Shown here piece after piece: positions 7,068 through 44,996 of a DNA stretch of 64,000 nucleotides. The translations under genes and the position numbers were made by a program. How positions within the stretch are numbered: the stretch's first letter is position 1; each line of letters opens with the position of its first letter. Source of the DNA: an uncultured Pseudomonadota bacterium (lineage in GTDB: Bacteria; Myxococcota_A; Polyangia; Fen-1088); assembly GCA_963847705.1 (NCBI GenBank), contig CAWKBC010000014.1, positions 128,001 through 192,000 of the forward strand, given 5' to 3'. The notes under the pieces were generated by a model that saw only the letters and a program-made list of their open reading frames with translations, searched no databases and was not told where the DNA came from.

Positions 7068-9641
7068 TTGCTTGCTCTTCACCTTCTGTCCGCCCTGCTC
7101 GCTTTAGCGCCGAACGAGGGCACCGAACCGCCCCATCTGGTCGCGGTCAAGACGCCGGCCCCGCCGCTCATCGACGGTCGCCTCGAAGATCCGGTCTGGC
7201 AGCTGGCCCCGGGCACCTCGGCGTTCACGCAATCCTTCCCTTTCGACGGCGGGCTGCCCTCGGAAAAGACCGTGCTGCGCGTGCTCTACGACGAGACGGC
7301 GATCTACATCGGGTTCGAGTGCGAGCAGCTCCACACGCCGATCGTCGAGCGCCTGACCCGCCGCGACCGCGACTCGGAGAGCGAGTGGGTCTACGTCAAC
7401 ATCGATTCGCGCAACGACGGCAAGAGCGCCTACATGTTCGCCGTCAACATCGCCGGCGTGCTCGCCGACGCACAGATCATCGACCAGACCACCTACTCCT
7501 GGGAGTGGGACGAAAACTGGGAAGCGAAGACCACCCGGACCAAGAAGGGCTGGTCGGCGGAGATCCGGATCCCGCTGCGGGTGCTGCGCTTCGACAGCAA
7601 GCTGCCGGTGCAGAGCTGGGGGTTCCAGGCCTCGCGCTTCATCGCCCAGCGGGAAGAGACCGACCTGTGGACCTACGTCCCGCGTGACGTCGCGGCGCCG
7701 ATCGCGTTCTACGGACGCCTCGATGGCCTCAGCGATCTCAGGGGGGCCGGCGCGCTGGAGCTGCAGCCCTTCGTCCTCGCCTCCGGCCAGCGGCGCGACG
7801 CCAGCCAGATGGCCGTCGGAGGCGGCACCTCGGGCAGCGCCTCGGCCGGCCTCGATCTCAAGTGGCACATCGCCCAGGACCTCACCTTCGACGCCGCGCT
7901 CAACCCGGACTTCTCCCAGGTCGAGCTCGACCAGATCATCCTGAACCTCGGCACCTACGAGACGTTCCTGCCGGAGAAGCGCCCGCTTTTCCTGGAGGGG
8001 ATCGACGCCTTCTCGTTCCCGATGCAGGTCTTCTATTCGCGCCGGATCGGCAGCGCGCCGGTGGCGCCCTCGCTGCGGAGCGATGCCTCCAGCAACGAAG
8101 AGCTGGTCAACCTCACGACGCCGGCGACGATCTACGGCGCCGGGAAGCTGGTCGGCCGCCTCAGCCCCAACTGGACGATCGGCGCGCTGAGCGCCCTCAC
8201 GGCCGCCAACAACGTCACCATCTACGACAACATCAACGAAAGAGAGACCCAGCGGCTGGCGGCGCCGATCACCGCATTCAACGTTCTGCGTCTCAAGCGC
8301 GAGCTCGGCAGCGGCGGCCACATCGGCCTCATCGGAACCGGCTCGACGACGTTCGAGAACGACGGCGGCTACCCCAAGCTGACCACCGAGAGCCTTCGCG
8401 AGCTGTGCCCCTCGGGGGCGACCCCGCCCGTCGGGAGCAACTGTTTCCACGACGCCTACGTCGGCGGCCTCGACGGTCTCTGGCGCTCGCCCTCGGGCGC
8501 CTACGTCGTCAACGGCGCGTTCATCGAGTCGTACATCCGCGGCGGGCCGGTGGTCATGCAGCCCGACGGGACGTTGATCGGCTCGGGCGCGGCGGCGCCG
8601 GGCGGGTGGCTGCGGGTGGCGAAAGAGGGGGGCAAGCACCTCACCTGGAGCGCGGAGTACACCGGCGCGGGGCGCCAGCTCGACTACAACGACCTCGGCT
8701 ACATGCAGCGGCAAAACGTGGAGACCGTGCAGGCGACTGTCGGCTGGCGGACGCTGGAGCCGGGCAAGCACACCGTCGACACCACCAGCACCCTGGTCGT
8801 CTCGGACAGCCGCAACATGTCCTGGCTCGATCTCGGGCAGGGCTACGAGCTGAACACGCGCCTCCACCTGCTCGACTTCTCGTCGGTGTTCCTGGCCGCG
8901 GACTACGCCCCCGCGCGCTTCGACGACCGCGAGGTCGGCGACGGCACCGCGCTCGAGCGCGCCGGCTACCTCGGCGGCAAGCTGGAGTACGACAGCGATC
9001 CGCGCCGCGCCGTCTACGCGACGATCGCCAACCAGACGCAAGTGATGGGCGCCGGCATCTACGCGACCAGCGTGCAGGCGAGCGCCCTGTTCCACGCGCT
9101 CCCGCAGCTCGACATCGAGATCATCCCGACGTTCACCTGGGCGGCCGGCGAGTACCGCTACGCCTGGCAGTCGGTCGGCCCGGACGACCCCTATCTGTTC
9201 GGCAAGCTGGCCGCCAAGAACGTCAGCGCCACCCTGCGCGCCAGCTACACCTTCACCCCGCGCCTCACGCTGCAGGCCTACGCGCAGGCCTTTCTCGCCT
9301 CCGGACATTTCTCCGACGTCCGCGCGATCGGCGCCCTGCCGAGCGGGCCCGGCGCGCCCCCGCGCCAGCCAGGCGGCACGGTTCACCTGTCGACGCTCGC
9401 CGGCTCTCCGGGAGTCATCCCCGGCACGAACCCCGACTTCGAAGAGGCGGCCATCAATGCCAGCGTCGTCTTCCGCTGGGAGTACCGCCTCGGTTCGACT
9501 CTCTATCTCGTGTATACCCGCTCACAAATTCCAGAGGTACAGAACCTGATGGGCCCGGCGATGCTGGCTCCGCGCGAGTTCAACCACGGCGCGGCGACCG
9601 ACGTGATTTTGCTGAAACTCTCATATTGGTGGGCCAGCTGA
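7068..9641 (+). CDS. Outer-membrane protein with N-terminal CBM9-like domain and DUF5916-like barrel
   Basis: IDGRLEDPVW, GWSAEIRIP, NPDFSQVELD, FLPEKRPLFLEG, FYSRRIG, FRWEYRLGSTLYLVY, C-terminal KLSYWW. Confidence 0.8.
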   Translation: MLALHLLSALLALAPNEGTEPPHLVAVKTPAPPLIDGRLEDPVWQLAPGTSAFTQSFPFDGGLPSEKTVLRVLYDETAIYIGFECEQLHTPIVERLTRRDRDSESEWVYVNIDSRNDGKSAYMFAVNIAGVLADAQIIDQTTYSWEWDENWEAKTTRTKKGWSAEIRIPLRVLRFDSKLPVQSWGFQASRFIAQREETDLWTYVPRDVAAPIAFYGRLDGLSDLRGAGALELQPFVLASGQRRDASQMAVGGGTSGSASAGLDLKWHIAQDLTFDAALNPDFSQVELDQIILNLGTYETFLPEKRPLFLEGIDAFSFPMQVFYSRRIGSAPVAPSLRSDASSNEELVNLTTPATIYGAGKLVGRLSPNWTIGALSALTAANNVTIYDNINERETQRLAAPITAFNVLRLKRELGSGGHIGLIGTGSTTFENDGGYPKLTTESLRELCPSGATPPVGSNCFHDAYVGGLDGLWRSPSGAYVVNGAFIESYIRGGPVVMQPDGTLIGSGAAAPGGWLRVAKEGGKHLTWSAEYTGAGRQLDYNDLGYMQRQNVETVQATVGWRTLEPGKHTVDTTSTLVVSDSRNMSWLDLGQGYELNTRLHLLDFSSVFLAADYAPARFDDREVGDGTALERAGYLGGKLEYDSDPRRAVYATIANQTQVMGAGIYATSVQASALFHALPQLDIEIIPTFTWAAGEYRYAWQSVGPDDPYLFGKLAAKNVSATLRASYTFTPRLTLQAYAQAFLASGHFSDVRAIGALPSGPGAPPRQPGGTVHLSTLAGSPGVIPGTNPDFEEAAINASVVFRWEYRLGSTLYLVYTRSQIPEVQNLMGPAMLAPREFNHGAATDVILLKLSYWWAS

Positions 9642-9752: not shown

Positions 9753-9768
9753 TGGCACGATCGCTGCT
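9753..9768 (+). promoter_or_regulatory. sigma54 -24/-12 promoter (of decayed precursor copy)
   Basis: TGGCACG-ATCG-CTGCT matches TGGCACG-N4-TTGCW with one change; near-identical to the 10346 site. Confidence 0.65.
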
Positions 9769-9796: not shown

Positions 9797-9970
9797 ATGA
9801 CCACGACGAGGAAGAGCACGGACCTGAAAGCGAGGACGACGATCGAGCTCGGCGGTCTCAACGCCACCAACCACACCTGCGCTGGTCTCGAGGTCCGCCA
9901 GCCAGGCAACGCCGCGTCGCCATCGATCACAACTGCGGCGCCGGTCTCGTCTTGAGATCGAGCCACGCTC
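9797..9970 (+). pseudogene. Degenerate paralogue of the NHN-cassette precursor
   Basis: MTTTRKSTDLKARTTIELGGLNATNHTCAGLEVR aligns with MKTTT..GLKVKSAIKAGGL..ANHNRSALKVR; a second cassette remnant (VAIDHNCGAGLVLR) is in another frame; in-frame stop at 9955. Confidence 0.6.
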
Positions 9971-10345: not shown

Positions 10346-10361
10346 TGGCACGGTCGCTGCA
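10346..10361 (+). promoter_or_regulatory. sigma54 -24/-12 promoter of the polyprotein precursor
   Basis: TGGCACG-GTCG-CTGCA about 60 bp upstream of ATG 10421; RBS AGGGAG at 10406-10411. Confidence 0.75.
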
Positions 10362-10420
10362 ACTCCGTGAGGTGTTCACGGAAAAAAACCTCGAGCAAAA
10401 AAATCAGGGAGACCACGATC

Positions 10421-11119
10421 ATGAAGACCACGACGACGACCACGACCGGCCTGAAGGTGAAGAGCGCGATCAAGGCTGGTGGCGGGCCTGGCTCGCTTGT
10501 CGCCAATCACAATCGCTCCGCACTCAAGGTCAAGTCGACGATCAAGGCCGGTGGACTCGGCACCGCCAATCACAATCGCTCCGCACTCAAGGTCAGGTCA
10601 GCGATCAGGGCCGGCGCCGTCGACGTACTGTCGGCCAACCACAGTCGCTCCGCACTCAAGGTCAAGTCAGCGATCAGGGCCGGCGCCGTCGACGTACTGT
10701 CGGCCAACCACAATCGCTCCGCACTCAAGGTCAGGTCAGCGATCAAGGCCGGCGGACTCGGCACCGCCAACCACAATCGCTCCGCACTCAAGGTCAGGTC
10801 AGCGATCAAGGCCGGCGGACTCGGCACCGCCAATCACAATCGCTCCGCACTCAAGGTCAAGTCAGCGATCAAGGCCGGCGGACTCGGCACCGCCAATCAC
10901 AATCGCTCCGCACTCAAGGTCAAGTCAGCGATCAAGGCCGGCGGACTCGGCACCGCCAATCACAATCGCTCCGCACTCAAGGTCAGGTCAGCGATCAAGG
11001 CCGGCGGACTCGGCACCGCCAATCACAATCGCTCCGCACTCAAGGTCAAGTCGACGATCAAGGCCGGCGGACTCGGCACCGCCAATCACAATCGCTCCGC
11101 ACTCAAGGTCAAGGAGTAG
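10421..11119 (+). CDS. 232-aa multi-cassette peptide precursor (10 double-glycine/NHN cassettes)
   Basis: RBS plus ATG; 10 units LKV(K/R)S(A/T)I(K/R)AG(G/A)-variable-ANH(N/S)RSA; all unit lengths keep frame; C39-peptidase exporter nearby. Confidence 0.85.
   Translation: MKTTTTTTTGLKVKSAIKAGGGPGSLVANHNRSALKVKSTIKAGGLGTANHNRSALKVRSAIRAGAVDVLSANHSRSALKVKSAIRAGAVDVLSANHNRSALKVRSAIKAGGLGTANHNRSALKVRSAIKAGGLGTANHNRSALKVKSAIKAGGLGTANHNRSALKVKSAIKAGGLGTANHNRSALKVRSAIKAGGLGTANHNRSALKVKSTIKAGGLGTANHNRSALKVKE
10451..11113 (+). repeat. Coding tandem repeat of 63/69/72-bp units
   Basis: Recurrent GCCAATCACAATCGCTCCGCACTCAAGGTCA(A/G)GTC; seven 63-bp, two 69-bp and one 72-bp unit. Confidence 0.95.
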
Positions 11120-11171: not shown

Positions 11172-13862
11172 TCAGATAGCACGACGTCCAACATCGGCCT
11201 GCGCCGATTCGTGCTTTTGAAGCCACGCTTCCACCTGCGCCAGATTCTTACCGAGGGCCGCCTTCTCGTACACGGCTCGAGCGTCCTCTGCCAGTCGACG
11301 AGCGCGGCTCTGTTCTCGGCCCGATTCCCACAGCGCCTTTGCAAGGGCGAACCAAGTGTCGGCCCGATCGATCGGATCAACACCATCCTGGTCCCCGCGC
11401 ATCTTGACGGCCCGCTCTAGCGGCTCGACTGCAGCAGCGCCTCGCCCTTCCGTCAGATAGCCGATACCGATTCCAGTCAAGGAATAGGCGAGGACCGGTG
11501 CTTCCTTGCCGAGCTCGCGCTGCCAGATGGCGATCGCCTCTTCGAACGATCGCCGCGCCTCGTCCGGTTTGCCAAGGGCGTTGAGAATTTCGCCGCGATT
11601 GTTCAGCTGACTGGCCAAGTCCGGGTGTCCTGGACCGAGCCTTTTGACCTGGATTTCGATCGATCGCTCGACGTGAACCAACGCTTCTTCGTTCCGACCA
11701 GCGCCCTCTAGCACGTAGCCAAGGTTCCCTTCGGACTTCCCGACATCAGGATGATCCGGGCCCAGCAGGGCCTTCTTGAGCGCCAGTCCTTCTGTGAGCG
11801 CCTGTACGCCTGACTCCGTATCGCGGTGGACAGCGTAGGCACATCCGAGGTTGTTGAGCGCCCACGCTCTTAACAACTCGTGTCCGCCGAGCCGCTTGAG
11901 CACCGCGTTCGCGGTCACGAACCATCTCTTGGAGTCCTCAAGCCGTGCTTCTTGATCCCCCACCACGAAGACCAGTGTGGTCGCAACCTCGGCACGGATC
12001 TCGTCGTGCCGTGACGCGTCCGCAAGACTGTAGGCCTCGACCAACGCTTTCTCGGCAGCGTGGGGGTCGTTGGTTCTCTGTTTCATTGTCCCGAAGAGTC
12101 CCAGAGATTCTGCCAGCAGCGGCTCATAGCCGACCGTGCGAGCTTCCAAAACCAGTGCTGGTGCGTTCTGCAGCGTCTCTTTCCACCTTCCGGCATCGAA
12201 TCGCGCTTTCGTTTCCGCCATCCGCTTCCGCAGATCCGCCACCTTAGCCACCTTAGCCGGATCGTCGGGTGGCCGAACGACGGCTCGCAGCGTCGGAACG
12301 TCCGCGCAGCGGTCGAGCGTCGCAAGGGCGTTCGTCGCGGAAACAGCATTCTCGACGACCTCTCCCGTGGCGTCGGCGAATACATCCGTGAGGGCGTGGA
12401 ATCCGTTGAGTCGCTCGTTCAGGCAGGACATACGCAAGTCCAGCACCTCCGGGGACTGCTCATGGCGGAGCTGCGTCGCCTCGCAAGTCTGCTTGTACAT
12501 GTTCGCCCAAGTCTGGGCGTAGCCGGTCATCGCGCGCGTGACCGTTTCGTAGACGTCGGCGGCGTAGCTCTTTCCCGTCCGCATGAATGCGGCATGAATC
12601 TGAGACTGCCGCGGGGTCTCGGGTTGATCGGGCGGGTGAAGCTCCCAAATGCCCGCCAACTTCTCGCCGGCGCCGTCGCAAAGGGCCCGCCTGTCGATCA
12701 AGCTCTGGCGGACCCCGAGGCCGACCAACACCGGCAGCATCGCCACCGTCGCACCAACCGCCCACTTTCGCCGTTCCGCGCGCGGGTCTTTGCCGAGCGC
12801 GGCGAGCAGCTCCGCCATCGACGGATATCGCTCCGCCGGCGCCGAGCGCAAACCGCGCAGCAAGATCCGGCGTACCCAGAATGGCACCTTCGTTCCGGGC
12901 GGCGCGGAGCGGATGGTCCCCTGCACGACGTTCGCGGTCAACTCGGTCAGTTTTTTCCCCGGGAACGGCCGCTCTCCGTAGAGCGACTCGTAGAGCGCCA
13001 CGCAGAAACTGAACTGATCGGTGCGCGCGTCGGTCTCTTTGCCGAAGAACTGCTCGGGCGCCATGTACGCGGGCGTCCCCATCATCGCGCCGGTCCGCGT
13101 GAGGCGCGCGTCGAACAGGCCGGAGACCGACGACTGCATCTCGGCGCCCGAATCGGCCAGGCCGGGATTGAGCACCAACGTCCCTTCGTCGACCGGAAGT
13201 GCACCTCGATCACGTAGCGGCACCCCGTTGTCGAGTGGCAGCGTCCCAGTGCCGACCTCGATGTCTCCGCGCTTCTGCCCTGGGGAGGTGGCACGCGCGC
13301 GGTGCTCCTTGAGGCCGGGCTTGTCGATCTGGCGCGCCAGACCGAAGTCCATGACGCGGACCTGGCCGTCGCGGCCGACCATCACGTTGTCGGGCTTGAA
13401 GTCTCGGTGGACGAGACCCTTCTCGTGCGCCGCGGTCAGACCGCGTCCCGCCGAGATGAAGATGCGCAGGATCTCCTGCCAGGTGCGCGGCTTCTGCTCC
13501 AGCCAGAAGGTCACGGTGTTCCCCTCGACGAACTCCATCGCGATGAAGACCTTGTCTTCGAACGTGCCGACGTCGTAGACGACGACCACGTTGGGATCCG
13601 ACAGGCGCGCGATCGCCTGCGCCTCGCGCAGGGTCCGCTGGCGCCCCTCCGTCATCGAGACGCCGTTGCCGGCCTTGACCCGCAGCAGCTTGACCGCGAC
13701 CTTGCGATCGAGCTCCGGATCGTACGCGGCGTAGACCTCGCCCATCCCACCGCGTCCCACCAGCCCCAGCACGACGTAGCGGCCGATGATCGCGCCGCGC
13801 CCGAGCGGCGTGGCGGCCGAATCGATCGGAATGTGCGAGGGGGTGGGGTTCGTCTTCGACAT
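11172..13862 (-). CDS. Membrane Ser/Thr protein kinase with C-terminal TPR domain
   Basis: GRGGMGEVY, VAVK, HRDFKPDN, DFGLAR, GTPAYMAPEQ; TM segment; TPR-like repeats (LGPDHPDV). Confidence 0.93.
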   Translation of the reverse strand: MSKTNPTPSHIPIDSAATPLGRGAIIGRYVVLGLVGRGGMGEVYAAYDPELDRKVAVKLLRVKAGNGVSMTEGRQRTLREAQAIARLSDPNVVVVYDVGTFEDKVFIAMEFVEGNTVTFWLEQKPRTWQEILRIFISAGRGLTAAHEKGLVHRDFKPDNVMVGRDGQVRVMDFGLARQIDKPGLKEHRARATSPGQKRGDIEVGTGTLPLDNGVPLRDRGALPVDEGTLVLNPGLADSGAEMQSSVSGLFDARLTRTGAMMGTPAYMAPEQFFGKETDARTDQFSFCVALYESLYGERPFPGKKLTELTANVVQGTIRSAPPGTKVPFWVRRILLRGLRSAPAERYPSMAELLAALGKDPRAERRKWAVGATVAMLPVLVGLGVRQSLIDRRALCDGAGEKLAGIWELHPPDQPETPRQSQIHAAFMRTGKSYAADVYETVTRAMTGYAQTWANMYKQTCEATQLRHEQSPEVLDLRMSCLNERLNGFHALTDVFADATGEVVENAVSATNALATLDRCADVPTLRAVVRPPDDPAKVAKVADLRKRMAETKARFDAGRWKETLQNAPALVLEARTVGYEPLLAESLGLFGTMKQRTNDPHAAEKALVEAYSLADASRHDEIRAEVATTLVFVVGDQEARLEDSKRWFVTANAVLKRLGGHELLRAWALNNLGCAYAVHRDTESGVQALTEGLALKKALLGPDHPDVGKSEGNLGYVLEGAGRNEEALVHVERSIEIQVKRLGPGHPDLASQLNNRGEILNALGKPDEARRSFEEAIAIWQRELGKEAPVLAYSLTGIGIGYLTEGRGAAAVEPLERAVKMRGDQDGVDPIDRADTWFALAKALWESGREQSRARRLAEDARAVYEKAALGKNLAQVEAWLQKHESAQADVGRRAI

Positions 13863-13988: not shown

Positions 13989-16109
13989 CTATGGGTGCGC
14001 GATGACGATCAAAGTCTCAGCCCGACTGAGCACGCAGGCGAGCGCGCGCTCGAGCGTCTCCGGGTCGAGCGCGGCGAAGCTCTCGTCGAGGATGCGGGCG
14101 TCGAGCGGCTGCAAAAGCGAACGCGCAATGTAGAGCCGCCCGCGCTCGCCGTGCGACAGCTGCCAGCCGCTCTCGCCGACCAGCTGCTCGAGCCCCGACG
14201 GCATGCGCCCGAGGAGCGGCCCGAGGTCGAGCTCGCGGCAGATCGCTTCGGCCTCCGCGACGTCCTCGCGGCGCGGGGGCCAGGCGCGTCCGAGCAGCAG
14301 ATTGAAGAGGAGGCTGGCGGAGAAGACGTGGTTCTCGTGGAACTGCGGCGCCGCGCCCACGCGCGCCCGCCAGCGCTCGTCGCCGAGCGCGCTCCGGTCG
14401 ATCCCGTCGAGCTGCAGGCTCCCCGAGGAGGGCGCCCTCAGCCCGCAGAGCAGCGCCGCGAGCGTCGACTTGCCGCCGCCCGAGGGGCCTTCGAGCAGCA
14501 CCCGATCGCCGCGCCGAATCTCGAGCGCGCAGTCGTCGAGCACCGGCTCGCGGCGTCCGGGGTAGCGGAAGCCCAGGGCGCGGGCCGCGATGAGCACGCC
14601 CCCGTCGGTGGCGGGCACCGCCGGTGAGGCGGGCGACGAAGTGGCCAAGGAAGTCGCCGACGAAGTCGCCGAGGAAATTGCGGCGCTCGGGCGCGCGGCC
14701 GTCGCGTCGCCCGCCAGCAGATCGCCGATGTTCCGCCAGGCGATCGCCGCGGCGCCGAGCGCGGGGAAGGCCCGCGCCAACTTGCGGAGCGCGCTGGTGA
14801 CGAAGAGGAGGCCGCCCAGGCTGGCGGCGAACGCGCCCGGGCGCTGCGTCGCCTCGCCGAATCGCGGCGCCAGGATGACGAGGGCGCCGATCAGGAAACC
14901 GCGCGGCACGACCACGGTCAGCGCAGCGACCGCGCGATCGAGCGCGCGGCCTCGCGACGAATAGAGGGCGAGCGCGCGGTCCTCGTCGCGGTGCCACAGC
15001 TCGCTCGGCTGCTGCGCGACCAGCGTCCGTTGCCCGACCATGCGTTCGACGAGATCGTGCGTGAGCGCCAGCCGCTCGGCCGACCAGGCCCGGAGCGACC
15101 GCTGCACGCGCGCCGCGAGCGCCGCGGCCAGGAGTCCCCAGGTTGCCGCGAAGACCAGCTCGCCGACCGGCGCCACGCCGACCGCCAGCACGCAGAGGCC
15201 GGTGGCAAGCTCGAAGAGCCCCACCGCCGCAGTGAGGCCACCGCCGAGCGCCAGCGATTCGACCGCCTCGACGTCGGCGACACGCCCCATGAGCCGGCCG
15301 ATCCCGGCCGCGCGCAGCGGCTCGGTGTCGAGGCGCAAGAGGCCGTGCAGGATCCGATCGCGCAGCACCGCGCCGGCATCGATCGCCAGCCGGCCGGCCG
15401 CGCGCGACGAGGCGAGACGGACGGCGGCCAGGAGTGCGATGAGGGCGATCCACCCCCAGCCACCGCCCCCGAGGCTGCTCGCCCTCACGGCGCGCGCGCC
15501 GATCGTCCCCCAGAGCGCGACCAGCAGCGCGAGCTGCCCGACATAGCCCAGGAGCGCCGCCCCCAACCGGCGCCCGACGCCGGCGGCGCGCAGGGCCGCG
15601 CCGATCGAACGCCGCGCAGGGCGGAGCCGCGCCCCTTCGGCCACCCGCTCACCTCCGAGCGCCGCGGCCAGCAACGCCGCGCGCACGGATTCGGCGCGCG
15701 CCCCGGCGAAGCCCGCCTGCGCCACCGCCGCCTCCACGCCCGTCGGCGACGAGGCTTCGACCGGCGCGCGCAACAGCGCCGACAGCGCCGCGCTCGCGCG
15801 GACGGCGACGGTGCCGCCCGGGACCAGCAGACGCACGTCGGTGCCGGCGTGGCCGACGAGCCCCAGGAGCGCGCCCGCGCCGCCCCCCACGCGCAGAACC
15901 GCGGGCGCTTCGGCGCGCGCCCGCGACGTGAACACCGGCGCGACATCGGCGTAGCTGAGCTCGAAGCGATCGGATGGCCCTGGCTGCGCGATCCCGGCCG
16001 CCAACGCCAGCGCCGCGGTCAGCTCGTCGCGGCGCTCGAGTGGCCACAAGCAGTCGTCCAAGCTGCTGTTCGAGCCGGCGTTCGCCTTGGCTTCCCAGCG
16101 GGCGCTCAC
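13989..16109 (-). CDS. ABC exporter half-transporter (TMD+NBD)
   Basis: GPSGGGKST, LSHGE, ILDESFAALD, terminal IAHP; overlaps stop of the upstream PCAT. Confidence 0.88.
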   Translation of the reverse strand: MSARWEAKANAGSNSSLDDCLWPLERRDELTAALALAAGIAQPGPSDRFELSYADVAPVFTSRARAEAPAVLRVGGGAGALLGLVGHAGTDVRLLVPGGTVAVRASAALSALLRAPVEASSPTGVEAAVAQAGFAGARAESVRAALLAAALGGERVAEGARLRPARRSIGAALRAAGVGRRLGAALLGYVGQLALLVALWGTIGARAVRASSLGGGGWGWIALIALLAAVRLASSRAAGRLAIDAGAVLRDRILHGLLRLDTEPLRAAGIGRLMGRVADVEAVESLALGGGLTAAVGLFELATGLCVLAVGVAPVGELVFAATWGLLAAALAARVQRSLRAWSAERLALTHDLVERMVGQRTLVAQQPSELWHRDEDRALALYSSRGRALDRAVAALTVVVPRGFLIGALVILAPRFGEATQRPGAFAASLGGLLFVTSALRKLARAFPALGAAAIAWRNIGDLLAGDATAARPSAAISSATSSATSLATSSPASPAVPATDGGVLIAARALGFRYPGRREPVLDDCALEIRRGDRVLLEGPSGGGKSTLAALLCGLRAPSSGSLQLDGIDRSALGDERWRARVGAAPQFHENHVFSASLLFNLLLGRAWPPRREDVAEAEAICRELDLGPLLGRMPSGLEQLVGESGWQLSHGERGRLYIARSLLQPLDARILDESFAALDPETLERALACVLSRAETLIVIAHP

Positions 16110-18881
16110 CGCGGCCGCTCCACGATCCGGCGCTCTTCGAGCCGCAGCCGGCGCCAGCGCTCACCCGACCAGGCCGCCGCCCGCACCCGCCGCTCGGCGT
16201 CGGCCAGCGCCGCATAACGCGAGCCCGGCTGCGCGAGCAGCGCCGCGGGGGCGCCGTCCTCGGCGACGCGGCCGTCCGCGATCACCAGGACGCGCGGAAA
16301 GGCCGCCGTCTCGTCGATGTCGTGGGTCACGCAAAACAGCGTCGCCGAGGACCAGCGGCGCCGCGCCCGCGCCAGCAGAGCCTGGCGCTGGTCGCGCGAG
16401 AGCCCCCGGAACGGCTCGTCGAGGATCACCAGCCGCGGCCGCTCGCGCAAAAGCCCGCGCCCGAACCGCACCCGCTGTCCTTCGCCGCCCGACACCAGGC
16501 CGCCCGCCTCGCCGAGCGGCGTCGCGAGCCCCTCGGGCAGCCGGCGCACCACCTCGCCGAGCTCCGCCTCGTCGAGCACGGCGCCGAACGCGTCGGGGGT
16601 GGCCGCCAGGCCGAACGCCAGGTTGTCGGCCAGCGACCGGTTCCAGAGATAGACGGCGGGATCGATCCAGACGGTCCGGCGGCGCAGCGCCTCGATCCCG
16701 GCGCCGTCGAGCGGCGCCCCGTCGATGCGGACCGTGCCGGTCGCCGGCCGGTGCCATCCGAGCAGCAGCCCCACCAGGCTCGATTTGCCGGCGCCCGACG
16801 CACCGACGATCGCCACCGCCTCTCCGGGCGCGATCGCCAGCGCGCCGACCTCGAGGATTCTGGTGACCGCCGGCCACCACGCGCACGTCGTCGAGCTGAA
16901 TGCGCACACCCGGCCTGACGTCGTCGGCAGGCGCGCCGGCGTCTTCTGTGGGCGTGGTCTGTGCGGCTCGAGCGGCGCCCGCGGCGTCGTCCTCGGGGGC
17001 GCCGAGCGGCTCGAGCAGCCGCAGGGTGAGGTTGCGCTGGGCCGGGATCTGCTGGACCAACGCGGTCAGCTCCTGGCCGAGCGCCGGCAACGACAGCGCC
17101 CAGTAGACGAGCAGCAGCGCCGTGCCGGGATCTGCCGTCGCGGCCGTCGCCGCTCCACGCCCGAAGAAGCCCACCAGCAGCCGCACCGCCAGCGCGAGCC
17201 CGAGCAGCGTCTGCGCGGCCTCCGCCGTCAGCGCCGCGCCGAGCGCCCGCCGCGCGGCCGCCACCCATTCCCGCAGGCGATCGCGATGCTCCCGCGCCAG
17301 CGCAGGCTCGCCGCCGTGCGTGCGCACCGCCACCAGCCCCAGCAGCCCGTCGAGGTAGAAGCGCCCCAACGCGCCCGCGTGGTTGCGCATCCGCAGATCG
17401 CGCTCCGCCACGGCCGGCTCGGCGACGAACGGGACCAGCAGCGCGACCAGCCCGAGCGCGATCGCCAACCCCGCGCCGCGCGGGTCGAGCCAGGCCAGTC
17501 CACCCGCGACGACCACGATCTCGATCCCGGTGCGGGCAATCTCTCCGCCCAGCGTCGGGAGCGCGCGCAGTCGGTGCAGGAGGTGCGCGCGCTCGGCCAT
17601 GTCCGAGACCGGTCGGCTCTGGAAGTAGCGATCTGGCAGGCGTGGAATCTTGCGCAGGTAGAGCGCGCGCAGCCGCTCCTCGAGCCGGGCCCCCGCGCGG
17701 CGCAAGCTCCCCGCCAGCGGGAGCTCGAGCGCGAGCAGCGCCACCAGCAGCACCACGATCGCCCCCGCGAGCGCCCGGGGACTGCGCGGCGCGCCGCCGA
17801 GGGCGTGGCCGGCGAGGCGCGAGAGGAATCCGGCGCTGCCGGCGCCATCCCCCACCGCGAGATCGATGAGCGCCCGGAACAGCAGGGCTTCGGCGACGGC
17901 GCCCAGCGCCGCCAGCACGACCCCGACGGCGAGCGCGGCCCAGCGCCCGCGCCCGTCGCGGACCAGCAGGCGCCAGAGCTCGGCCGCGGCGCGCGGGCGC
18001 GGCTCCTCGACGGCGGCGCGCAGCTCGGCCGGCAACGCCGCCTTCCGGACGTCGTCGAGCGGCCTGGCCGCCGACGCCCGCAGCAGGACGGCGCCGCGGA
18101 CCGTGACCTGCGCGGTGCCGTCCTCGGCGGCGGGCGCAGCCGAGGCGGTGGCGTAGATGGGCGGCACCAAGGGAGGTCCGTCGTCGCCCGCCCGGGCGAA
18201 CGCCAGCGAGTTGACCAGGCCGCCGGCTTCGGCGCCGGATGAGACCGCACCCGAGGCCACCAGCGCGGCGACCGTTCGTGTCGCGCCGTCGAGCGCGGCG
18301 ATCGCCGACCAGCCCGCATCGTCGAGAGCGCGGGCGATCAGCGCTTCGCCATCCGGCGCTCCCAGCGCGCGCAGCCGGTGAGCGAGCGGGCGGGTGAACG
18401 CGTCGCTGGCGGCGAACTCGCGGAAGGCGTCGGCGGGAACCGACATCCGGTGCACGTAGACGTCACGCAGGAACGTCTCGCGCCGCACCCACCGCCGCCC
18501 CCGCGCCGGGTCCATGACCTGCACGAAGCCGCCGTGCACGCGCCAGACGACCACGAAGTGAACCAGCCCCGACGGCAACCGCGTCACGACGATGGCGGGC
18601 AGCGCCTCCGCCTCGGCGAGCAGCAGGTGGTCGACCGGCATCATCACCTGCTCGGCGTCGAGCCCCAGGCTGGCCCCCAGCGTCTCCAGCGTGTCGATCG
18701 ACGTCCCGTCGACGGAGGTCTGGCAGGCCTCGCGCAGGCGGCCGTAGCTGACGCCGACGCCAAAGCCCTCCAGCAGGCACTTCAGGGCCGCCGGCCCACA
18801 GTCCATCGCCGAGGTCTGAATCACCTCCGGCGCGAAGAATCGCCGTGAAGCTCGCGACGGCGACGACGGCGACGACGACAT
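16106..18881 (-). CDS. Peptidase C39-containing ABC transporter (PCAT), apparent frameshift at ~16858
   Basis: QTSAMDCGPAAL (catalytic Cys), HFVVVW, MDPARG; TMD; removing one base joins VVAGGHQ to ILEVG...GASGAGKS, VSGGE, LDEPF. Confidence 0.88.
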
Positions 18882-18911
18882 TTGGGCCACCCACGCTACA
18901 ATGACGGCCCG

Positions 18912-20042
18912 GTGGCATCCATCCCTCGCGCTCCCGGCGCCGACCGCGCCGAGCGCCATCTGACCGTCGCTGTCGCCGCCCACGAGCGCGCCATCGCGCT
19001 GCGGATCGCCGGCCGCTTCGCTCCGGCCGAGCAGGCCTGCCGCCGGGCGCTGGCGGGCTATACGGCCGCGGAGGGGGCCCGCCACCCCGACGTGGCCAAC
19101 GCGCTCTGCGAGCTGGCCACGACCCTGCAGGCGCGCGATCGCCCCACCGAGGCTGCCCGTGCCCTCCGCCGGGCGCTGGCGATCCTGCGCGCGCCCTCGG
19201 ACGATCCCGATCTGCTGCGCCTCCGGCTGCAAGCGCGGATTGCCCTGGCCGGCCTCGACCGCGCGCGCGGCGCCTACGGCGCCGCCGACCGCGGCTTCCG
19301 GGCCGTGCTGGCGGAGGCGCGGCGCCGGCTGCCGCCGCGCGATCCGCTGACGCTCGGGGTGCTCAACAACCTGGGCGTCCTGCGCAAGGCCGAGGGGCGC
19401 TACGCCGAGGCCGTCGGCTTTTATCGGCAGACGAAGCGCCTGCTCGGCCGCGATCGCCAGGCGCGCGCCACGCTGGAGCACAACCTCGGCGGCATCGCCC
19501 ACGCGCGCGGCCGCTACGCCGAGGCCGAGCCGCACGCCCGGCGCGCGGTCACGCTGCGGGCGGCGGCCGTCGGGGCGTCGCACCCGGCCTGGGCGGCCGA
19601 CGTCGCGGCGCTGGCGGCGGTGGTGGAATCGCGCGGTCGCCTCGACGAGGCGGCGGCCCTCTACCGCCGGTCCCAGGCGGTCTTCCGCCGCAAGCTCGGC
19701 GAGGCCAGCCTGGAGTTCGGCCTGGGGCTGGCCGGGCTGGCGGCCGTCGAGCAGCAGCGGGGGAACGTCGCCCGCGCCCGGTCGCTGTATGCGCGGGCGC
19801 TGCCGACGCTGGGGCGCCGCCTCGGACGCCACCATCCCGACGTCGCCTTGACCGTCAACAACCTCGCCGTGCTGGAGCGAAACGAGCATCGCCTCGGGCG
19901 CGCGGAGGCGCTGTTCCGGCGCGCGGCCGAGAGCCTGCGGCGCGCGCTCGGGGCGCGGCACCCACACACCGTCCTGGCGCGCGACAACCTGCGCGCGGTG
20001 ACTGCGGCACGGCTCAAGCCCACCCGCGTCACCCGCCGATGA
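18912..20042 (+). CDS. TPR-repeat protein
   Basis: Repeated HPDVA..NNL / LNNLG TPR-like units; divergent from the PCAT; start uncertain. Confidence 0.8.
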   Translation: MASIPRAPGADRAERHLTVAVAAHERAIALRIAGRFAPAEQACRRALAGYTAAEGARHPDVANALCELATTLQARDRPTEAARALRRALAILRAPSDDPDLLRLRLQARIALAGLDRARGAYGAADRGFRAVLAEARRRLPPRDPLTLGVLNNLGVLRKAEGRYAEAVGFYRQTKRLLGRDRQARATLEHNLGGIAHARGRYAEAEPHARRAVTLRAAAVGASHPAWAADVAALAAVVESRGRLDEAAALYRRSQAVFRRKLGEASLEFGLGLAGLAAVEQQRGNVARARSLYARALPTLGRRLGRHHPDVALTVNNLAVLERNEHRLGRAEALFRRAAESLRRALGARHPHTVLARDNLRAVTAARLKPTRVTRR

Positions 20043-20052
20043 CCAGTCACTG

Positions 20053-21444
20053 ATGGCGGAGCCCCTCCTCGACCTGGTTGTGCGCGGGGGGACCATCGTG
20101 AACGCCGACGGGCGACAGCGGGTCGACGTGGGGGTCGCCGGCGGGCGCGTCGTTCAGCTCGGCGGCGCGATGACCGGCGCCCGCGAGCTCGACGCCGGTG
20201 GCCGCTTCGTCCTGCCGGGGGGCGTCGATCCGCATGTCCACCTCAACGTCGCCGAGCTCGACTCCAGCGAACCGGACTGGGTCGACGACTACACCAGCGG
20301 CTCGGAGGCCGCGCTGGCCGGGGGCGTCACCACCGTCGGCAACATGTCCTACGTCCTGCCCTGGGAGACCATCGCCGAGCGCGTGGCCGCCGAGTCGGCG
20401 CTGGTGGCGCGGCAGGCGATCGCCGACGTCTTCTTCCACGCCGTCGTGCTGACGCCGGGCCCCGAGCTCGTGGCCGAGGTGGGACCGGCGGTGGCGGCGG
20501 GTCAGTCGAGCATGAAGATCTTCATGTGCATGCCGTCCTTCGACGCCTGCGCCCCGGAGTTCAGCCGGCTGATGAAGGCCACCGGCGACGCGGGTGGAAT
20601 CGTGCTCATCCACTGCGAAGATCTCGCCACCATCGAATGTTGCACCGCCATGCTCTCGGCGCGGGCGCAGACCGCGACCGCGCACTTCGCCGAGAGCCGG
20701 CCGGTCGCCTCGGAGGTCATCGCGGTCGAGCGGGCCATCGCCATGTGCCGCGCCACCGGCGCGCCGACCTACATCGTCCACCTGTCGTCGGCGGGCGCGC
20801 TGGTGGCCGCGCGGGCGGCCCGCGCCGAGGGGCTCCCCCTCTTCGTGGAGACGCGCCCCCTCTACCTCTACCTGACCGAGGAGCGTTACCGCGACCCCGA
20901 CGGCGGCATCTACGTGGCCCAGCCGCCGCTGCGCGCCGACGTCGATTGCGAGGCCCTCTGGCGCGGCATCGCCGACGGCACGGTCGACACGCTCGGCAGC
21001 GATCATGCTCCCTGGACGCGCGCGCTCAAGCTCGACCCCAAGCTGGACGTCGCTCATCCGCGCCCGGGCGTGGCCGAGCTCGACACCATGTTGCCGCTCT
21101 TCTTCACCGAGGCGGTCGGCAAGGAACGGATCACGCTGGAGCGCTTCGTCGCCCTCACCGCCAGCAACGCCGCCCGCCTGTTCGGCCTCTATCCGCGCAA
21201 GGGGACGATCGCGGTCGGCTCCGACGCCGACCTGGTGATCTGGGAGACGCGCGGGCGGCGAACGATTCGCGACGAGCAGCTCTTCTCGCGCGCCGGCCAC
21301 ACCGTCTACGCCGGCCGGGAGATCACCGCCTGGCCAAGGACCACCATCCGCCGGGGCGAGGTGGTGTTCGACGACGGCCGCATCGTGGGTCGCCCCGGCG
21401 GCGGCCAGCCCGTCCCGCGCGGCAAGACGCAGCCGCCGCGCTGA
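20053..21444 (+). CDS. Cyclic amidohydrolase (dihydropyrimidinase/hydantoinase-like)
   Basis: PGGVDPHVH, GGVTT, IHCED, IVHLSS, GSDHAP, KGTIAVGSDADLVIW. Confidence 0.88.
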   Translation: MAEPLLDLVVRGGTIVNADGRQRVDVGVAGGRVVQLGGAMTGARELDAGGRFVLPGGVDPHVHLNVAELDSSEPDWVDDYTSGSEAALAGGVTTVGNMSYVLPWETIAERVAAESALVARQAIADVFFHAVVLTPGPELVAEVGPAVAAGQSSMKIFMCMPSFDACAPEFSRLMKATGDAGGIVLIHCEDLATIECCTAMLSARAQTATAHFAESRPVASEVIAVERAIAMCRATGAPTYIVHLSSAGALVAARAARAEGLPLFVETRPLYLYLTEERYRDPDGGIYVAQPPLRADVDCEALWRGIADGTVDTLGSDHAPWTRALKLDPKLDVAHPRPGVAELDTMLPLFFTEAVGKERITLERFVALTASNAARLFGLYPRKGTIAVGSDADLVIWETRGRRTIRDEQLFSRAGHTVYAGREITAWPRTTIRRGEVVFDDGRIVGRPGGGQPVPRGKTQPPR

Positions 21445-21516
21445 CTGTCCCGCGCGGCAAGACGCAGCCGCCGCGCTGACTGTCCCGCGCGGCGAGACGC
21501 AGCCCCCGCGCTGACT
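21412..21516 (+). repeat. 3 x 35-bp tandem repeat across the amidohydrolase stop codon
   Basis: GTCCCGCGCGGCAAGACGCAGCCGCCGCGCTGACT at 21412, 21447 and 21482 (third copy has 2 mismatches). Confidence 0.95.
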
Positions 21517-24064
21517 ACCCCGGCTGGCGTGCGGCCAGCCAGCGGGTCACCTCGTCGGCTCGGCTCGCGAAGGCGGGCTGCCGGAGATAGGCCTTGTGGG
21601 CGCCGGTGGCCAGCCGAAGCGCGCGCTCCCGGTCGCCGCCCGATTCCCACAGCGCGCGGGCCAGCGCGAAGCTCGTCTCGGCCACCAACGCGGCGTCGTT
21701 TTCGTGCAGATCGCGGATGCGCCAGGCCCGTTCGAGCGGCGCGACCGCCACCGCCGGCAGGTGCTCGGCGAGGTAGCTCTGGCCGAGGCCGGCCAGGGTG
21801 TAGGCGACGATCGTGCTGTCCGCCCCGTAGGCCCGCTCCTCGATGGAGAGCGCCTGTCGATAGGCCGCGCGTGCCTCCTCGTGACGGCCCAGCTTGTCGA
21901 GGCTCTCCCCCTTGTTGGAGATGAAGGTGGCGACCAGCGGGTGCCCGGCCCCGACCTCTCGAGCCAGGTCGGCGATCGCCCGATCGAAATAGCCGACCGC
22001 CTCTTGGTTCCGGCCGACATCCGCCAGGACATTGGCCTCGTTGTTCAAGCTACGCGCCACATCGCCGCGGCTCACGCCTGCGTGGACTTTGAGCGCGACG
22101 GCGCGTTCTTCGTGGGCCAGCGCTTCCGGATAGCGCCCCTGGCTCTTCCGGTTGGTCGCGATGTGCGTCTCCAGCCAGGCCCGCAACCGCTCGTGCCCGC
22201 CGATCCGGTCGAGAATCGCATAGGCCTGGCCAGTCCAGTCATCGGCCTCGTCGTAACGTCCGAGCGCGCCCGACGTCCAGACCAAGAACACGATCGCCTC
22301 CGCTTCGGTCTCGTCGGCGTGCGACGCCTCGGCCAGCCAGGCCGCCTCCTTGATCGCTTCATGGCTCGCCGCGCCGTCATTCCCACCCGCCAGAACCTCG
22401 CCGAGCTGCAAGAGCGATTCCGCCAGCACCGGCGAATAGTGAATGCGGCGCGCGTCGACCACCAGCGCCCGCAGGTTGCTGGTGGCCGCCTTTTCGTTGC
22501 CCGCGCCATGCAGCACCTTGGCTTCGGCGATGCCCGCGCGGATCCGAGCCACCTCGTCGCGGGTCGCGGCATCCGCAGGCGGCGACAGGACGTTGCGCAG
22601 CAGCTTGGGATCGGCGCACAGCTCCAGGGTGCCGAGCGCGTCCGCGGCGGCGACGGCGTTGTCGACCACGTCGCCGTCGGCCTGTGAAAGCAGCTGGGTC
22701 AGTGACTTCGCGCCGTTCAACCTCTCGCCCAGGCAGGCCATCCGCAGGTCGAGGACCTCGGCCGATTGCTCGCCACGGACCTGGGTTGCCTCGCAGGCCT
22801 CGGTGTACATCCCGCTCCAGCGCCCGAGATAGTCCGTCAGCAGGCGGTCGACGCTGGAGAAGCTCTCCGCCGCGTAGGAGCGGCCGCTCCGGTCGAACGC
22901 CTGAAGCGCCCGGCGCTTGACGCCGCCGTCCCAGACCCCCGCCAGCCTGTCACCGGCGGCCCGGCAGAGGCGCGGGCGCTCGGCAATCTGAACGGCGCGC
23001 ATGCCCCCCACGCAGGCCGCGACGACCAGCGCCGCCGACGTCAAGCGCCGGTGCCGCGCGACCCCCTTTTTCGCCCGCACCCAGCTGCGCTGGAGCGCGG
23101 ACCGCGGCCGCGCCGCTTCTGCCGCCGCCAGGCGCCCCACCACGGCCATCGCGGTCGGGGGGCGCAACGCCGGGTTGGCGGAGAGGCAGTCGACGCACAG
23201 CCGCGCCAGCTCCTCCTCGACCGGGGTTGCTTCCGGCGGCAGCGGCCATTTCAGGGTGGGCCTGTCGTCGATCTGCTCGAAGGCGGGTCGGCAACCAAAC
23301 AGGGTCTCGTGGAGGATGACGCCGAGCTGCCAGACGTCGGACCGCCGATCACCGCGCTGACCGAGCAGCGTCTCCGGCGGCATGTAGTTGGGCGTCCCGC
23401 CGTTCATGGTCGTGCTGGCCGACAGCTCGATGGCCAGACCGAAGTCCGAAATCACCAGGCGGCCGTCCTCCATGCGCAGCACGTTCTGGGGCGTCACGTC
23501 ACGGTGGACGATCCCGACGGCGTGGATCGCCGCCAGCCCGGCGCAGATCGCCCGGGCGTCCGTCAGGCGCTCCCCGAGCGGCCTGGGCTCCTTGCGGGTC
23601 CCCTGATGCAGCAGGGCGCGCAACGTTCCCCCGGTCCCCAGCTCCATGGTCACGAACCAATGCCCGTCCGCGTGACCCAGCTCGTACACCCGACAGACGT
23701 TCGGATGACGAATGGCGCGAGCGACCTTCACCTCCCGCGCGAGCCGCATGATCCAGCTCCGCTGGCGCGCCCGATCGGGGCGCAGAACCTTGATTGCAAT
23801 CAGCTCGCCCAGCACGCGATCCCAGGCACGGTAGACCGTTCCGCTCCCCCCCTGTCCCAGGATCGCTTCGATCTGATAGCGCCCCGCCAGGACCGCCGCG
23901 ACGCCGAGCTCGGTTTCCGGCGCCACCTCGAACTGGTGCGATTCCGCGGACATCGTCACCGAATGCTCGGGCTCGCTCCCGGAGAAAACAGCCTTCTGGG
24001 AATCGTCCGAATCGTCCGCCAACGCGCCCTCCTCCCTGCACCGGCCGGTGCCGTTGTATATCAT
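21515..24064 (-). CDS. Second membrane Ser/Thr kinase with TPR domain
   Basis: GQGGSGTVY, HRDVTPQN, DFGLA, GTPNYMPPE; CEATQ..EQS.EVLDLRM.CL block shared with the kinase at 11172; true start may be TTG 24022. Confidence 0.9.
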   Translation of the reverse strand: MIYNGTGRCREEGALADDSDDSQKAVFSGSEPEHSVTMSAESHQFEVAPETELGVAAVLAGRYQIEAILGQGGSGTVYRAWDRVLGELIAIKVLRPDRARQRSWIMRLAREVKVARAIRHPNVCRVYELGHADGHWFVTMELGTGGTLRALLHQGTRKEPRPLGERLTDARAICAGLAAIHAVGIVHRDVTPQNVLRMEDGRLVISDFGLAIELSASTTMNGGTPNYMPPETLLGQRGDRRSDVWQLGVILHETLFGCRPAFEQIDDRPTLKWPLPPEATPVEEELARLCVDCLSANPALRPPTAMAVVGRLAAAEAARPRSALQRSWVRAKKGVARHRRLTSAALVVAACVGGMRAVQIAERPRLCRAAGDRLAGVWDGGVKRRALQAFDRSGRSYAAESFSSVDRLLTDYLGRWSGMYTEACEATQVRGEQSAEVLDLRMACLGERLNGAKSLTQLLSQADGDVVDNAVAAADALGTLELCADPKLLRNVLSPPADAATRDEVARIRAGIAEAKVLHGAGNEKAATSNLRALVVDARRIHYSPVLAESLLQLGEVLAGGNDGAASHEAIKEAAWLAEASHADETEAEAIVFLVWTSGALGRYDEADDWTGQAYAILDRIGGHERLRAWLETHIATNRKSQGRYPEALAHEERAVALKVHAGVSRGDVARSLNNEANVLADVGRNQEAVGYFDRAIADLAREVGAGHPLVATFISNKGESLDKLGRHEEARAAYRQALSIEERAYGADSTIVAYTLAGLGQSYLAEHLPAVAVAPLERAWRIRDLHENDAALVAETSFALARALWESGGDRERALRLATGAHKAYLRQPAFASRADEVTRWLAARQPG

Positions 24065-24099: not shown

Positions 24100-25581
<1,482 letters not shown>

Positions 25582-25582
<1 letters not shown>

Positions 25583-29732: not shown

Positions 29733-30021
29733 GCGTCGCAACGTTCGCAACGGTCGTGCCAGAGCAACGGTCCTGCTACGGCAACGGTCTTGCCACAGCC
29801 GCGCAAAGGTTCCGGGTCGCAATCCTCTACCTAACTATTGCTTTGGACTTCGCCAAAAGGCGTGCTAGCTTCCTTGCAACGCTCGTGGTTCGCGGCATTC
29901 TTGGCCGCACCGGCGTTGGAGGGCCGCGGTGGTTTTTGACGGCCCCCGCAGAGGTTTTCCACAGGGTGCATGAGGGCAGTTGGGCTGAACGGCGAGGGTA
30001 AGCGCCCATTTTTCCAGGAGT

Positions 30022-44648: not shown

Positions 44649-44996
44649 CCGACGGATCTGGCCCTCTATCGTGCTAGCGGCAGCGGTTTTCACGACGTCG
44701 AGGTGGTTTATATTCGACACAAACGCAACATCAGACGACTCAAGCGCAACCAGGTGTTGGCGGTCCTTTGGCCACCAATCACGCCAATAACATTCGCCGT
44801 AGCTAACTAATATCATTCGTGTTTATTCCATTCAGTCCTCGTTCCAAGGTGGCACCGAAGCTGCTAAACTCAGGCACTCCCTCGGGACAATCAGTCATCC
44901 GGCGGATGACGCCGCAGCCGCTCCGGTCCCTGGACTGTAGCGGCGGTCAGAGCTGAGATGCGGGAGGAGCCTTGGGCGAGTGCGGAGCGCTGCAGG

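Follow-up and report, generated by a model that had tools for sequence, protein, structure and literature searches.

The window analyzed here is a 64,000-nucleotide stretch from an uncultured bacterium (GTDB lineage Bacteria; Myxococcota_A; Polyangia; Fen-1088; GenBank assembly GCA_963847705.1, contig CAWKBC010000014.1, positions 128,001 to 192,000 of the forward strand). Our subject is PEP, a gene for a putative cassette-repeat peptide precursor at positions 10421..11119 on the plus strand, together with the genes around it. The gene order is DUF5916 (+), a small open reading frame (ORF) (+), PEP (+), the receptor-like kinase gene STK1 (−), the ATP-binding cassette (ABC) exporter genes ABC2 (−) and PCAT (−), and TPR386 (+), which encodes a tetratricopeptide repeat (TPR) protein. 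It continues with a dihydropyrimidinase gene (+), the second kinase gene STK2 (−), and a sigma-54 activator-like gene (+).

An ORF scan and translation place the ATG of PEP at 10421 and the end of its stop codon at 11119, giving 232 codons. The 232-amino-acid protein begins with MKTTTTTTTG, continues with ten cassettes, and ends in a truncated eleventh "leader," LKVKE. Each cassette consists of LKV(K/R)S(A/T)I(K/R)AG(G/A) followed by a variable core and ANH(N/S)RSA, with three kinds of core: GPGSLVANHNRSA (the GPGSLV type) once, VDVLSANH(S/N)RSA twice, and LGTANHNRSA seven times. All ten junctions are G-G (eight) or G-A (two), with Ala at position −3 in each, and G-A occurs only before the VDVLS cores. 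At the DNA level, Tandem Repeats Finder reports one array at 10501-11113 with a period of 63, 9.5 copies, 93% matches, and a score of 957, a regularity beyond what chance would give. The protein is extremely basic, with 43 Lys and Arg residues versus 3 Asp and Glu residues, a net charge of +40, and an isoelectric point (pI) of 12. No hydrophobic, signal-like stretch was found at its N terminus, and it has no Sec signal. An initial annotation of the window, made from the sequence alone, had described the ten cassettes, the three core types in 7:2:1 proportion, the exclusive pairing of G-A with VDVLS, and the absence of a Sec signal, and translation bears out each of these points. That annotation had also held ANH(N/S)RSA to be constant and variation to be confined to the residues just after the junction; the first part stands, and the second does not, as the leader varies too (K/R and A/T).

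PEP matches no Pfam or NCBIfam model above its curated cutoff. Two subthreshold rows, TIGR02623 (23.5 bits versus a cutoff of 300) and PF25146 (19.6 versus 34.1), are spurious, and PEP matched none of the NCBIfam models, those for the NHLP and Nif11 leaders included. Relatives are nevertheless found in 22 of 24 other genomes of the genus and in 46 of 401 genomes of the class Polyangia, among them 36 of 71 from the window's own family-level group (f1). When 20 fetched Polyangia loci were inspected, 18 proved to be true members and 2 (L065 and L067) were unrelated repeats. Metagenomes contributed 11 matching proteins of similar length and 181 shorter ones, of which those carrying a name are all called "hypothetical protein" except for one "FlgA," and the ESM Atlas lists unnamed clusters of 160, 101, and 75 members. 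PEP is therefore one member of a still nameless family that occurs in soil myxobacteria (Polyangia); no description of this family turned up in the literature searched or among the names of the matching proteins. There is also a sister branch, represented by 44 metagenome loci, whose proteins read MTIRTQLKAGG-x-NHNEALQVRS….

For comparative work we assembled 33 complete PEP genes, taken from our own ORF scans of the relatives, which with the window's gene make a set of 34. The number of cassettes per protein ranges from 2 to 14 and differs between species, a comparison that the initial annotation had proposed, and cassette length varies even within single proteins. The family consensus is L-x-V-K/R-S/T/A-x-I/V-K-A-G-G-(L/F)-x-x-x-N-H-N/S-R, in which His is the sole invariant core residue and a Ser or Thr follows K/R-V-K/R in most cassettes, with Ala in some members. 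The residues between the junction and N-H form a hypervariable stretch that differs among species and among paralogues of one genome, in keeping with the earlier suggestion that the residues after the junction are the variable part. The 176 family junctions comprise 106 G-G, 5 G-[AS], and 24 A-G sites, along with 37 in which a bulky residue comes after K[AS]G and 4 of other kinds. Basic composition is general as well, with 773 basic versus 30 acidic residues among the 4219 residues of the 34 proteins, or approximately +4 for each unit.

Several features single out the PEP frame as coding. Its GC contents at codon positions 1, 2, and 3 are 0.55, 0.54, and 0.79, respectively, while the third positions of the other two frames have values of 0.56 and 0.54; all three plus-strand frames are open across the array. 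Within a conserved 10-residue segment of the relatives (54 distinct 30-mers), column entropies are 0.51, 0.37, and 1.05 at codon positions 1, 2, and 3, and both TCN and AGC codons are in use for Ser. A Shine-Dalgarno-like GGGAG, read from the sequence at 10407..10411 (+), lies 9 nucleotides (nt) 5′ of the ATG, and the start codon, ribosome-binding site, promoter element, and stop right after the last cassette are all kept in the relatives. Because of the third-position GC content, the synonymous variation in relatives, the ribosome-binding site, and the conserved start, we regard PEP as coding for protein, and on sequence grounds it is a real and selected one. A terminator-like hairpin with a T-run, located by consensus scan only, occupies 11193..11208 (+), 74 nt 3′ of the PEP stop and within the 3′ end of the convergent STK1.

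The PEP family is likely transcribed from a sigma-54 promoter. In the window, a sigma-54-type −24/−12 element, TGGCACGGTCGCTGC, is located at 10346..10360 (+), 75 nt 5′ of the PEP ATG, and a near-identical second element, TGGCACGATCGCTGC, is located at 9753..9767 (+), 44 nt 5′ of the small ORF. A scan with the pattern TGG[CT]A[CT]-N5-[TC]TGC found it within 250 nt upstream of 17 of the 34 PEP genes, the window's included, mostly at −55 to −94; the background was 22 matches in total on both strands of the 1.02 Mb that make up the same loci. Three further PEP genes have GTGC instead of CTGC, as read from their upstream sequences. The window as a whole contains four sigma-54-type matches versus 0.48 expected, and in the sister branch, TGGCA[CT]-N5-NTGC is found 42 to 64 nt upstream of 11 of 34 ORFs. 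Sigma-54 itself (rpoN) is encoded in the window's genome.

The small ORF behind the second element (9797..9955, +) translates as MTTTRKSTDLKARTTIELGGLNATNHT… and contains one degenerate cassette (…DLKARTTIELGGLNATNHT…), which gives a weak match at 9812-9928 (E 0.12). Most likely, this ORF is either a paralogue of PEP in decay or one with a single cassette. Elsewhere in the window, TGGCAC-N6-TGC is present at 29747-29761 (−) before a RadC-like ORF and at 44850-44864 (+) before a metallophosphoesterase-like ORF; each could be a further sigma-54 promoter or a chance match. A candidate regulator was considered as well, namely, the sigma-54 activator-like AAA+ protein encoded at 24461..25582 (+), which is syntenic with the TPR and exporter genes in several genera. 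In this protein, GAHSTA takes the place of the GAFTGA loop and an N-terminal sensor domain is missing, and so its link to PEP stays speculative.

The exporter genes provide the first functional context. PCAT (16106..18950, −) encodes a C39 peptidase-ABC exporter, as evidenced by a PF03412 match (E 7e-21) and by matches of its C39 domain to the solved ComA and PCAT1 domains. Alignment with PCAT1 shows that the catalytic Gln (Q), Cys (DCG), His (HFVV), and Asp (DP) are all conserved. ABC2 (13989..16109, −), identified by domain matches and by its genome-level co-occurrence with PEP, encodes a second ABC exporter subunit without a peptidase domain. Among NCBIfam models, TIGR03796 is the best peptidase-ABC family at the C39 region (E 8.5e-21) and TIGR03797 is listed for ABC2, both below their cutoffs. 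Within the same 401 Polyangia genomes, PEP is present in 25 of the 29 with a match to the ABC2 N-domain and in 21 of the 372 without one, and some of these 21 have a divergent PCAT/ABC2 beside PEP. In other genera (L051 and L061), PEP is directly convergent with ABC2 at a distance of 159 to 209 bp. In the window's genus, each genome has a single copy of ABC2, and some of the PEP genes often lie on contigs other than the one with ABC2, an arrangement that fits one exporter serving several precursors.

The most constant partner of PEP, which the initial annotation had missed along with the sigma-54 promoter, is a receptor-like Ser/Thr kinase with TPR repeats. STK1 (11172..13862, −) combines a kinase domain, a transmembrane (TM) helix (residues ~366-385), a four-Cys region, and TPR_12/TPR_10 repeats, and its stop codon is 52 bp from that of PEP. 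In an alignment of 29 STK1-type proteins, most have a basic (RRR-type) stretch and then a hydrophobic segment (Kyte-Doolittle mean over 19 residues, 1.5 to 2.6). Four Cys residues past the TM segment (395, 460, 480, and 519) are conserved in 25 to 26 of the 29. Topology would therefore appear to be receptor-like, with the Cys-containing TPR domain predicted to be extracytoplasmic, in the periplasm. The part past this segment carries a slight negative charge (net −8 and −3), versus +40 for PEP. Identity to STK1 always drops from the kinase domain through the middle to the TPR region (e.g., 0.88/0.78/0.59 and 0.86/0.74/0.51). An insertion of ~70 residues within the kinase domain divides the Pkinase match of STK1 in two (profile positions 1-152 and 155-251), and two further kinases encoded in the genome (914 and 865 amino acids) show the same split.

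Recurrence of these neighbors was counted around the 34 PEP genes. A kinase domain lies within 3.5 kb of 23 of them, and the TPR end of the kinase lies within 1 kb of 15. ABC2 is within 3.5 kb of 10 genes, PCAT is within 8 kb of 12, and a TPR386-like match is within 1 kb of 11. Counting any kinase, TPR, or ABC partner, 26 of the 34 have one within 1 kb. Because the window's 6.1-Mb genome has ~80 kinase genes (88 Pkinase matches), the adjacency of kinase and PEP is far above the base rate, with the proviso that the genomes are kin and not independent. The pair also has a preferred geometry, either tail to tail with 20 to 170 bp between the genes or head to head with 330 to 430 bp, and it recurs at paralogous loci without an exporter. 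STK2 (21515..24064, −) is, by its domain matches, a second kinase-TM-TPR gene, and its link to PEP is uncertain in the window; the STK2 orthologue in one relative (L057) has a convergent PEP gene.

The third partner, TPR386 (18882..20042, +), is divergent from PCAT and encodes a soluble TPR_12/TPR_10 protein with a pI of 11.6 and no signal peptide. It is 28% identical to the TPR region of STK1 over 197 residues, and its counterparts turn up again next to PCAT and PEP in other genera as well as in the sister branch. An electrostatic partnership between TPR386 and PEP was considered and rejected, as the window's copy has a net charge of +34 and its orthologues range from −22 to +31, with no consistent signal. 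Two other neighbors were set aside. DUF5916 (7068-9641) lies beside PEP in several genera, but the housekeeping genes adjoining it do as well, and we took this for plain synteny. "unk417" (417 amino acids, 20047-21300, −), despite tblastn matches in relatives, is a shadow of the plus-strand dihydropyrimidinase gene at 20053-21444. In one related locus (L025 of G001), the matches to several genes (DUF5916, an ArsA-like gene, STK1, and TPR386) fall in consecutive pieces in different frames, which suggests many assembly indels.

The sister branch adds a candidate enzyme. One of its loci (L071) encodes, on one strand, PCAT, ABC2, four PEP paralogues with three to nine cassettes, a 505-amino-acid protein, a 386-amino-acid TPR protein, and a PQQ-type propeller, and another (L098) continues into a kinase. 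The 505-amino-acid protein lies between the PEP genes and the TPR gene (L071:8062-9579; also L098:1418-2890, with lengths of ~481 to 505 residues) and has no sequence match in Pfam, NCBIfam, or the PDB. Its AlphaFold2 model (predicted local distance difference test [pLDDT] of 85) matches agmatine and peptidyl-arginine deiminases in Foldseek with E ~1e-11 and a probability of 1.00. The protein has 146 relatives; a C-terminal Cys within GGLHC is among the invariant residues, and one relative (P0239) is fused to TPR repeats. From this predicted fold and its setting, the sister lineage may tailor Arg in its PEP peptides, and the TPR protein may serve as the recruiter. The core common to both branches comprises the exporter, the TPR protein, and PEP, while the kinase pairing is prominent in the window's family.

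We propose that PEP is a sigma-54-driven, multicopy precursor that is exported and cut by the C39 system and whose peptides are read by the TPR ectodomain of the adjacent STK1, a reading to which we assign a probability of a little over 40%. The cassette anatomy, coding frame, family membership, recurrent neighbors, and conserved −24/−12 element are directly observed, and we infer the remainder, from export and cleavage at each junction to the periplasmic location of the TPR domain, peptide binding, and any autoregulatory loop. The precursor would be made from the sigma-54 promoter, its leader-like segments would be recognized, and the C39 domain would cut after G-G or G-A, with the PCAT/ABC2 pair exporting the products. 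Because no membrane fusion or outer membrane partner is encoded nearby, the simplest route would be delivery to the periplasm, where the paired kinase would bind the peptides as ligands through its TPR domain. Specificity would be set by the three to seven hypervariable residues after each junction, and the cassette count would set both the dose and the mixture, here 7:2:1 if every junction is cut.

Complete cutting would yield one 24-mer, two 23-mers, and seven LGT units (six 21-mers and a C-terminal 15-mer). An unmodified LGT unit cut at both junctions has a calculated mass of 2093.4 Da. Each product would start with variable residues and end in …IKAGG or …IRAGA, or in …LKVKE for the C-terminal one. 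This differs from the leader-plus-core division drawn in the initial annotation, which turns out to be arbitrary, as cleavage by C39 alone would leave the next "leader" on the C terminus of the preceding peptide, for a length of 21 to 24 amino acids. Peptides of 10 to 13 residues would need a second protease to cut after NHNRSA, because the C39-only products keep that next "leader."

The idea of repeated C39 cleavage, also put forward in the initial annotation, draws support from the conserved exporter context, the catalytic residues, and the ten G-G or G-A junctions with Ala at −3, and it fares less well against the leader sequence, the family-wide junctions, and the exporter frame. A double-glycine site has G-G, G-A, or G-S at −2/−1 with Ala at −3, and in the LahT150 complex the C39-bound leader is a short helix whose hydrophobic residues at −4, −7, and −12 are docked in a groove of the protease (PMC6363468). 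Compared with the leader described there, the PEP leader agrees at −1 to −3 only. As a putative double-glycine substrate, PEP has the junction and the exporter and lacks the hydrophobic leader pattern.

Several observations weigh against the proposal that PEP is an exported, cleaved precursor read by STK1. The PEP leader has K, S, and A at −4, −7, and −12, with hydrophobic I, V, and L at −5, −9, and −11 instead, and this alternation looks more like a β-strand than like the helix of the LahT150 complex. Family-wide, canonical junctions number 111 of 176, leaving 65 that are neither G-G nor G-[AS]. The PCAT frame is broken by one extra A at ~16858-16859 (AGAATCC versus AGATCC in three relatives), which puts the ATPase domain in a different frame from the rest; this is either an assembly indel or real inactivation, and, like the cassette number of PEP, it is based on one assembly. 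Next to the exporter, no membrane fusion or outer membrane partner was seen. The convergent orientation of PEP and STK1 means that the two are not cotranscribed. Moreover, none of the listed partners lies within 1 kb of 8 of the 34 PEP genes, and at 5 fetched loci there are none at all; a Pfam scan of the neighbors at these five returned unrelated genes, save for one kinase gene and one B12-radical S-adenosylmethionine (SAM) gene. Related genomes are kin, and the counts overstate their independence. Finally, AlphaFold2 stacks the six identical cassettes in strand-turn-strand form with a pLDDT of ~70, which fits an intact structural protein.

In how it would work, the proposed ligand-receptor system is closest to the double-glycine pheromone systems of Gram-positive bacteria (ComC, ComAB, and ComD, and the inducers of class II bacteriocins). 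Like ComC-type precursors, PEP is small, has no Sec signal, and has a G-G-type junction with Ala at −3, and a C39 peptidase-ABC exporter and a membrane receptor kinase are encoded nearby. Unlike them, it carries 2 to 14 tandem units rather than one, and in place of a histidine kinase its putative receptor is a Ser/Thr kinase of the Hanks type whose ectodomain is formed by TPR repeats. PEP comes from a diderm myxobacterium and has a sigma-54-type promoter, the hydrophobic −4/−7/−12 leader pattern is absent, and signaling by PEP is putative. The export machinery also resembles NHLP/Nif11-type pairs (TIGR03796 plus TIGR03797), in which a C39-ABC protein is likewise accompanied by a second, peptidase-less ABC protein. 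Unlike in those pairs, PEP lies outside both leader families, and no HlyD-type partner was seen.

The same precursor and exporter could instead produce cationic antimicrobial or bacteriocin-like peptides that PCAT exports and cuts and that act on other cells, the kinases being regulators or unrelated. A charge of about +4 per unit with almost no acidic residues, hypervariable cores, and a PCAT context similar to that of class II bacteriocin loci would all suit such a role, and myxobacteria are predators. We consider it unlikely, however, as we noticed no small membrane protein of an immunity-like kind at these loci, the kinase and PEP recur as a unit where there is no exporter, and it is the TPR part of the kinase that evolves fastest, which is unexpected for an unrelated regulator.

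It is improbable that PEP is exported as an intact repeat protein, with or without removal of a leader, to serve as a β-solenoid, an amyloid-like fiber, or a matrix or polyanion-binding protein. The AlphaFold2 model does contain a regular strand(8)-loop-strand(5) repeat at residues 103-231, the weak top Foldseek rows include FapC and CsgA fibrils, and the 21-residue period is similar to that of curli-type repeats. Confidence is low overall, though (pLDDT of 58, falling below 50 over the first 100 residues, where the cassette lengths differ), perfect repeats invite overly regular predictions, and no Foldseek match is significant (the best is FapC, with E 0.22 and a TM-score of ~0.1). Cassette length varies within proteins, the copy number can be as low as 2, and stacking +4 rungs without countercharge would be unfavorable. 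The functional amyloids CsgA and FapC share with PEP a repeat of ~21 residues, a predicted strand-turn-strand form, and conserved Asn and Gly, and the Fap system also uses a C39 peptidase (FapD), for which the window has a weak NCBIfam row. PEP differs from them in its extreme positive charge, variable cassette length, lack of a Sec signal, and lack of a significant fold match; it has no Pfam hit that would make it a curli or Fap protein, and no curli or Fap genes are found at the locus.

A quite improbable reading keeps PEP uncleaved in the cytoplasm as a multivalent partner of TPR proteins, where it would be a scaffold, a substrate, or a secretion-coupled regulator with no signaling outside the cell. 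This reading takes its appeal from the soluble, signal-peptide-free TPR protein that is conserved next to PCAT and PEP both in several genera and in the sister branch. Also, the sister-branch neighbor of the TPR gene is fused to a TPR domain once, which suggests recruitment of peptides by TPR domains inside the cell, and a Ser or Thr is conserved after K/R-V-K/R in most cassettes. That residue is Ala in some members, however, and the window's soluble TPR protein is itself very basic (net +34). The TPR region of the kinase lies beyond a conserved TM segment, and the co-occurrence with an exporter would be left unexplained. RRNPP-type sensing pairs a small peptide gene with an adjacent gene for a cytosolic TPR receptor that is fused to an HTH or phosphatase domain, and its peptide leaves through Sec and is re-imported. 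PEP does not fit this scheme: one of its TPR partners is a kinase-TM-TPR protein, the other is a TPR protein that stands alone and has no effector domain, and PEP has no Sec signal.

A longer shot is that the peptides are made on the ribosome and modified after translation (RiPPs), their invariant N-H-N/S-R or Arg being tailored by an enzyme encoded elsewhere in the genome, an explanation that overlaps the other rivals. The invariance of the core His, the deiminase-fold protein between the PEP genes and the TPR gene of the sister branch, and, in one relative, a B12-radical SAM gene that lies directly upstream of a PEP gene with ten cassettes are in its favor. This last gene (L056:8811-11906 of G383), on the same strand as PEP, codes for a 1031-amino-acid B12-binding radical SAM protein whose best NCBIfam row is a RiPP maturation C-methyltransferase, below the cutoff, and it was seen at one locus only. 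At the window's locus, there is no tailoring enzyme among the Pfam and NCBIfam domain matches; no deiminase-fold homologue was found in the window's genome (85% complete) with the 505-amino-acid protein as the query; and the other conserved neighbors are transporters, TPR proteins, and kinases. Multicore RiPP precursors such as cyanobactin PatE and the multicore microviridins (PMC5934393) likewise place repeated hypervariable cores between constant recognition sequences. They have one N-terminal leader, whereas PEP has a leader copy before every core, and the window's locus encodes no heterocyclase, ATP-grasp, or other tailoring enzyme.

Least of all is PEP a noncoding tandem DNA repeat with a frame open by chance, a negligible prospect that the three open plus-strand frames might raise but that is refuted, as far as sequence evidence goes, by the single frame marked out by third-position GC, by the synonymous-biased variation and two Ser codon families in relatives, and by the conserved start codon, ribosome-binding site, promoter element, and stop after the last cassette.

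Returning to PEP as a cleaved precursor with a cognate kinase, the design has a parallel in eukaryotes. Multicopy propeptides, including yeast alpha-factor, Kex2-processed repeat proteins, and multidomain plant CLE precursors, carry tandem short peptides separated by constant spacers in copy numbers that vary between strains, and the peptides are perceived by membrane receptors, which for CLE are receptor kinases. For PEP, the protease would be C39 and not Kex2 or subtilases, secretion would take another route, the lineage is a different one, and there is no sequence relationship, so the likeness is an analogy of design only. A bolder and more doubtful version of our proposal is that PEP represents a bacterial counterpart of eukaryotic peptide hormone signaling. 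A tandem polyprotein would be cut by C39 into a mixture of ligands for cognate TPR-ectodomain kinases, cores and receptors would codiversify into private channels across the Polyangia, and the peptides of the sister lineage would additionally be tailored by a TPR-guided peptidyl-arginine deiminase.

With a leader repeated before every core, PEP would be an unusual substrate for a peptidase-ABC exporter, and one that would offer simple genetic control over peptide dose and mixture. The deiminase link in the sister branch may point to a new class of modified peptides. Myxobacteria have many Ser/Thr kinases and, to our knowledge, the ligands of nearly all of them are unknown. If the proposed system is real, then the paired peptide and kinase genes described here would be directly testable ligand-receptor candidates.

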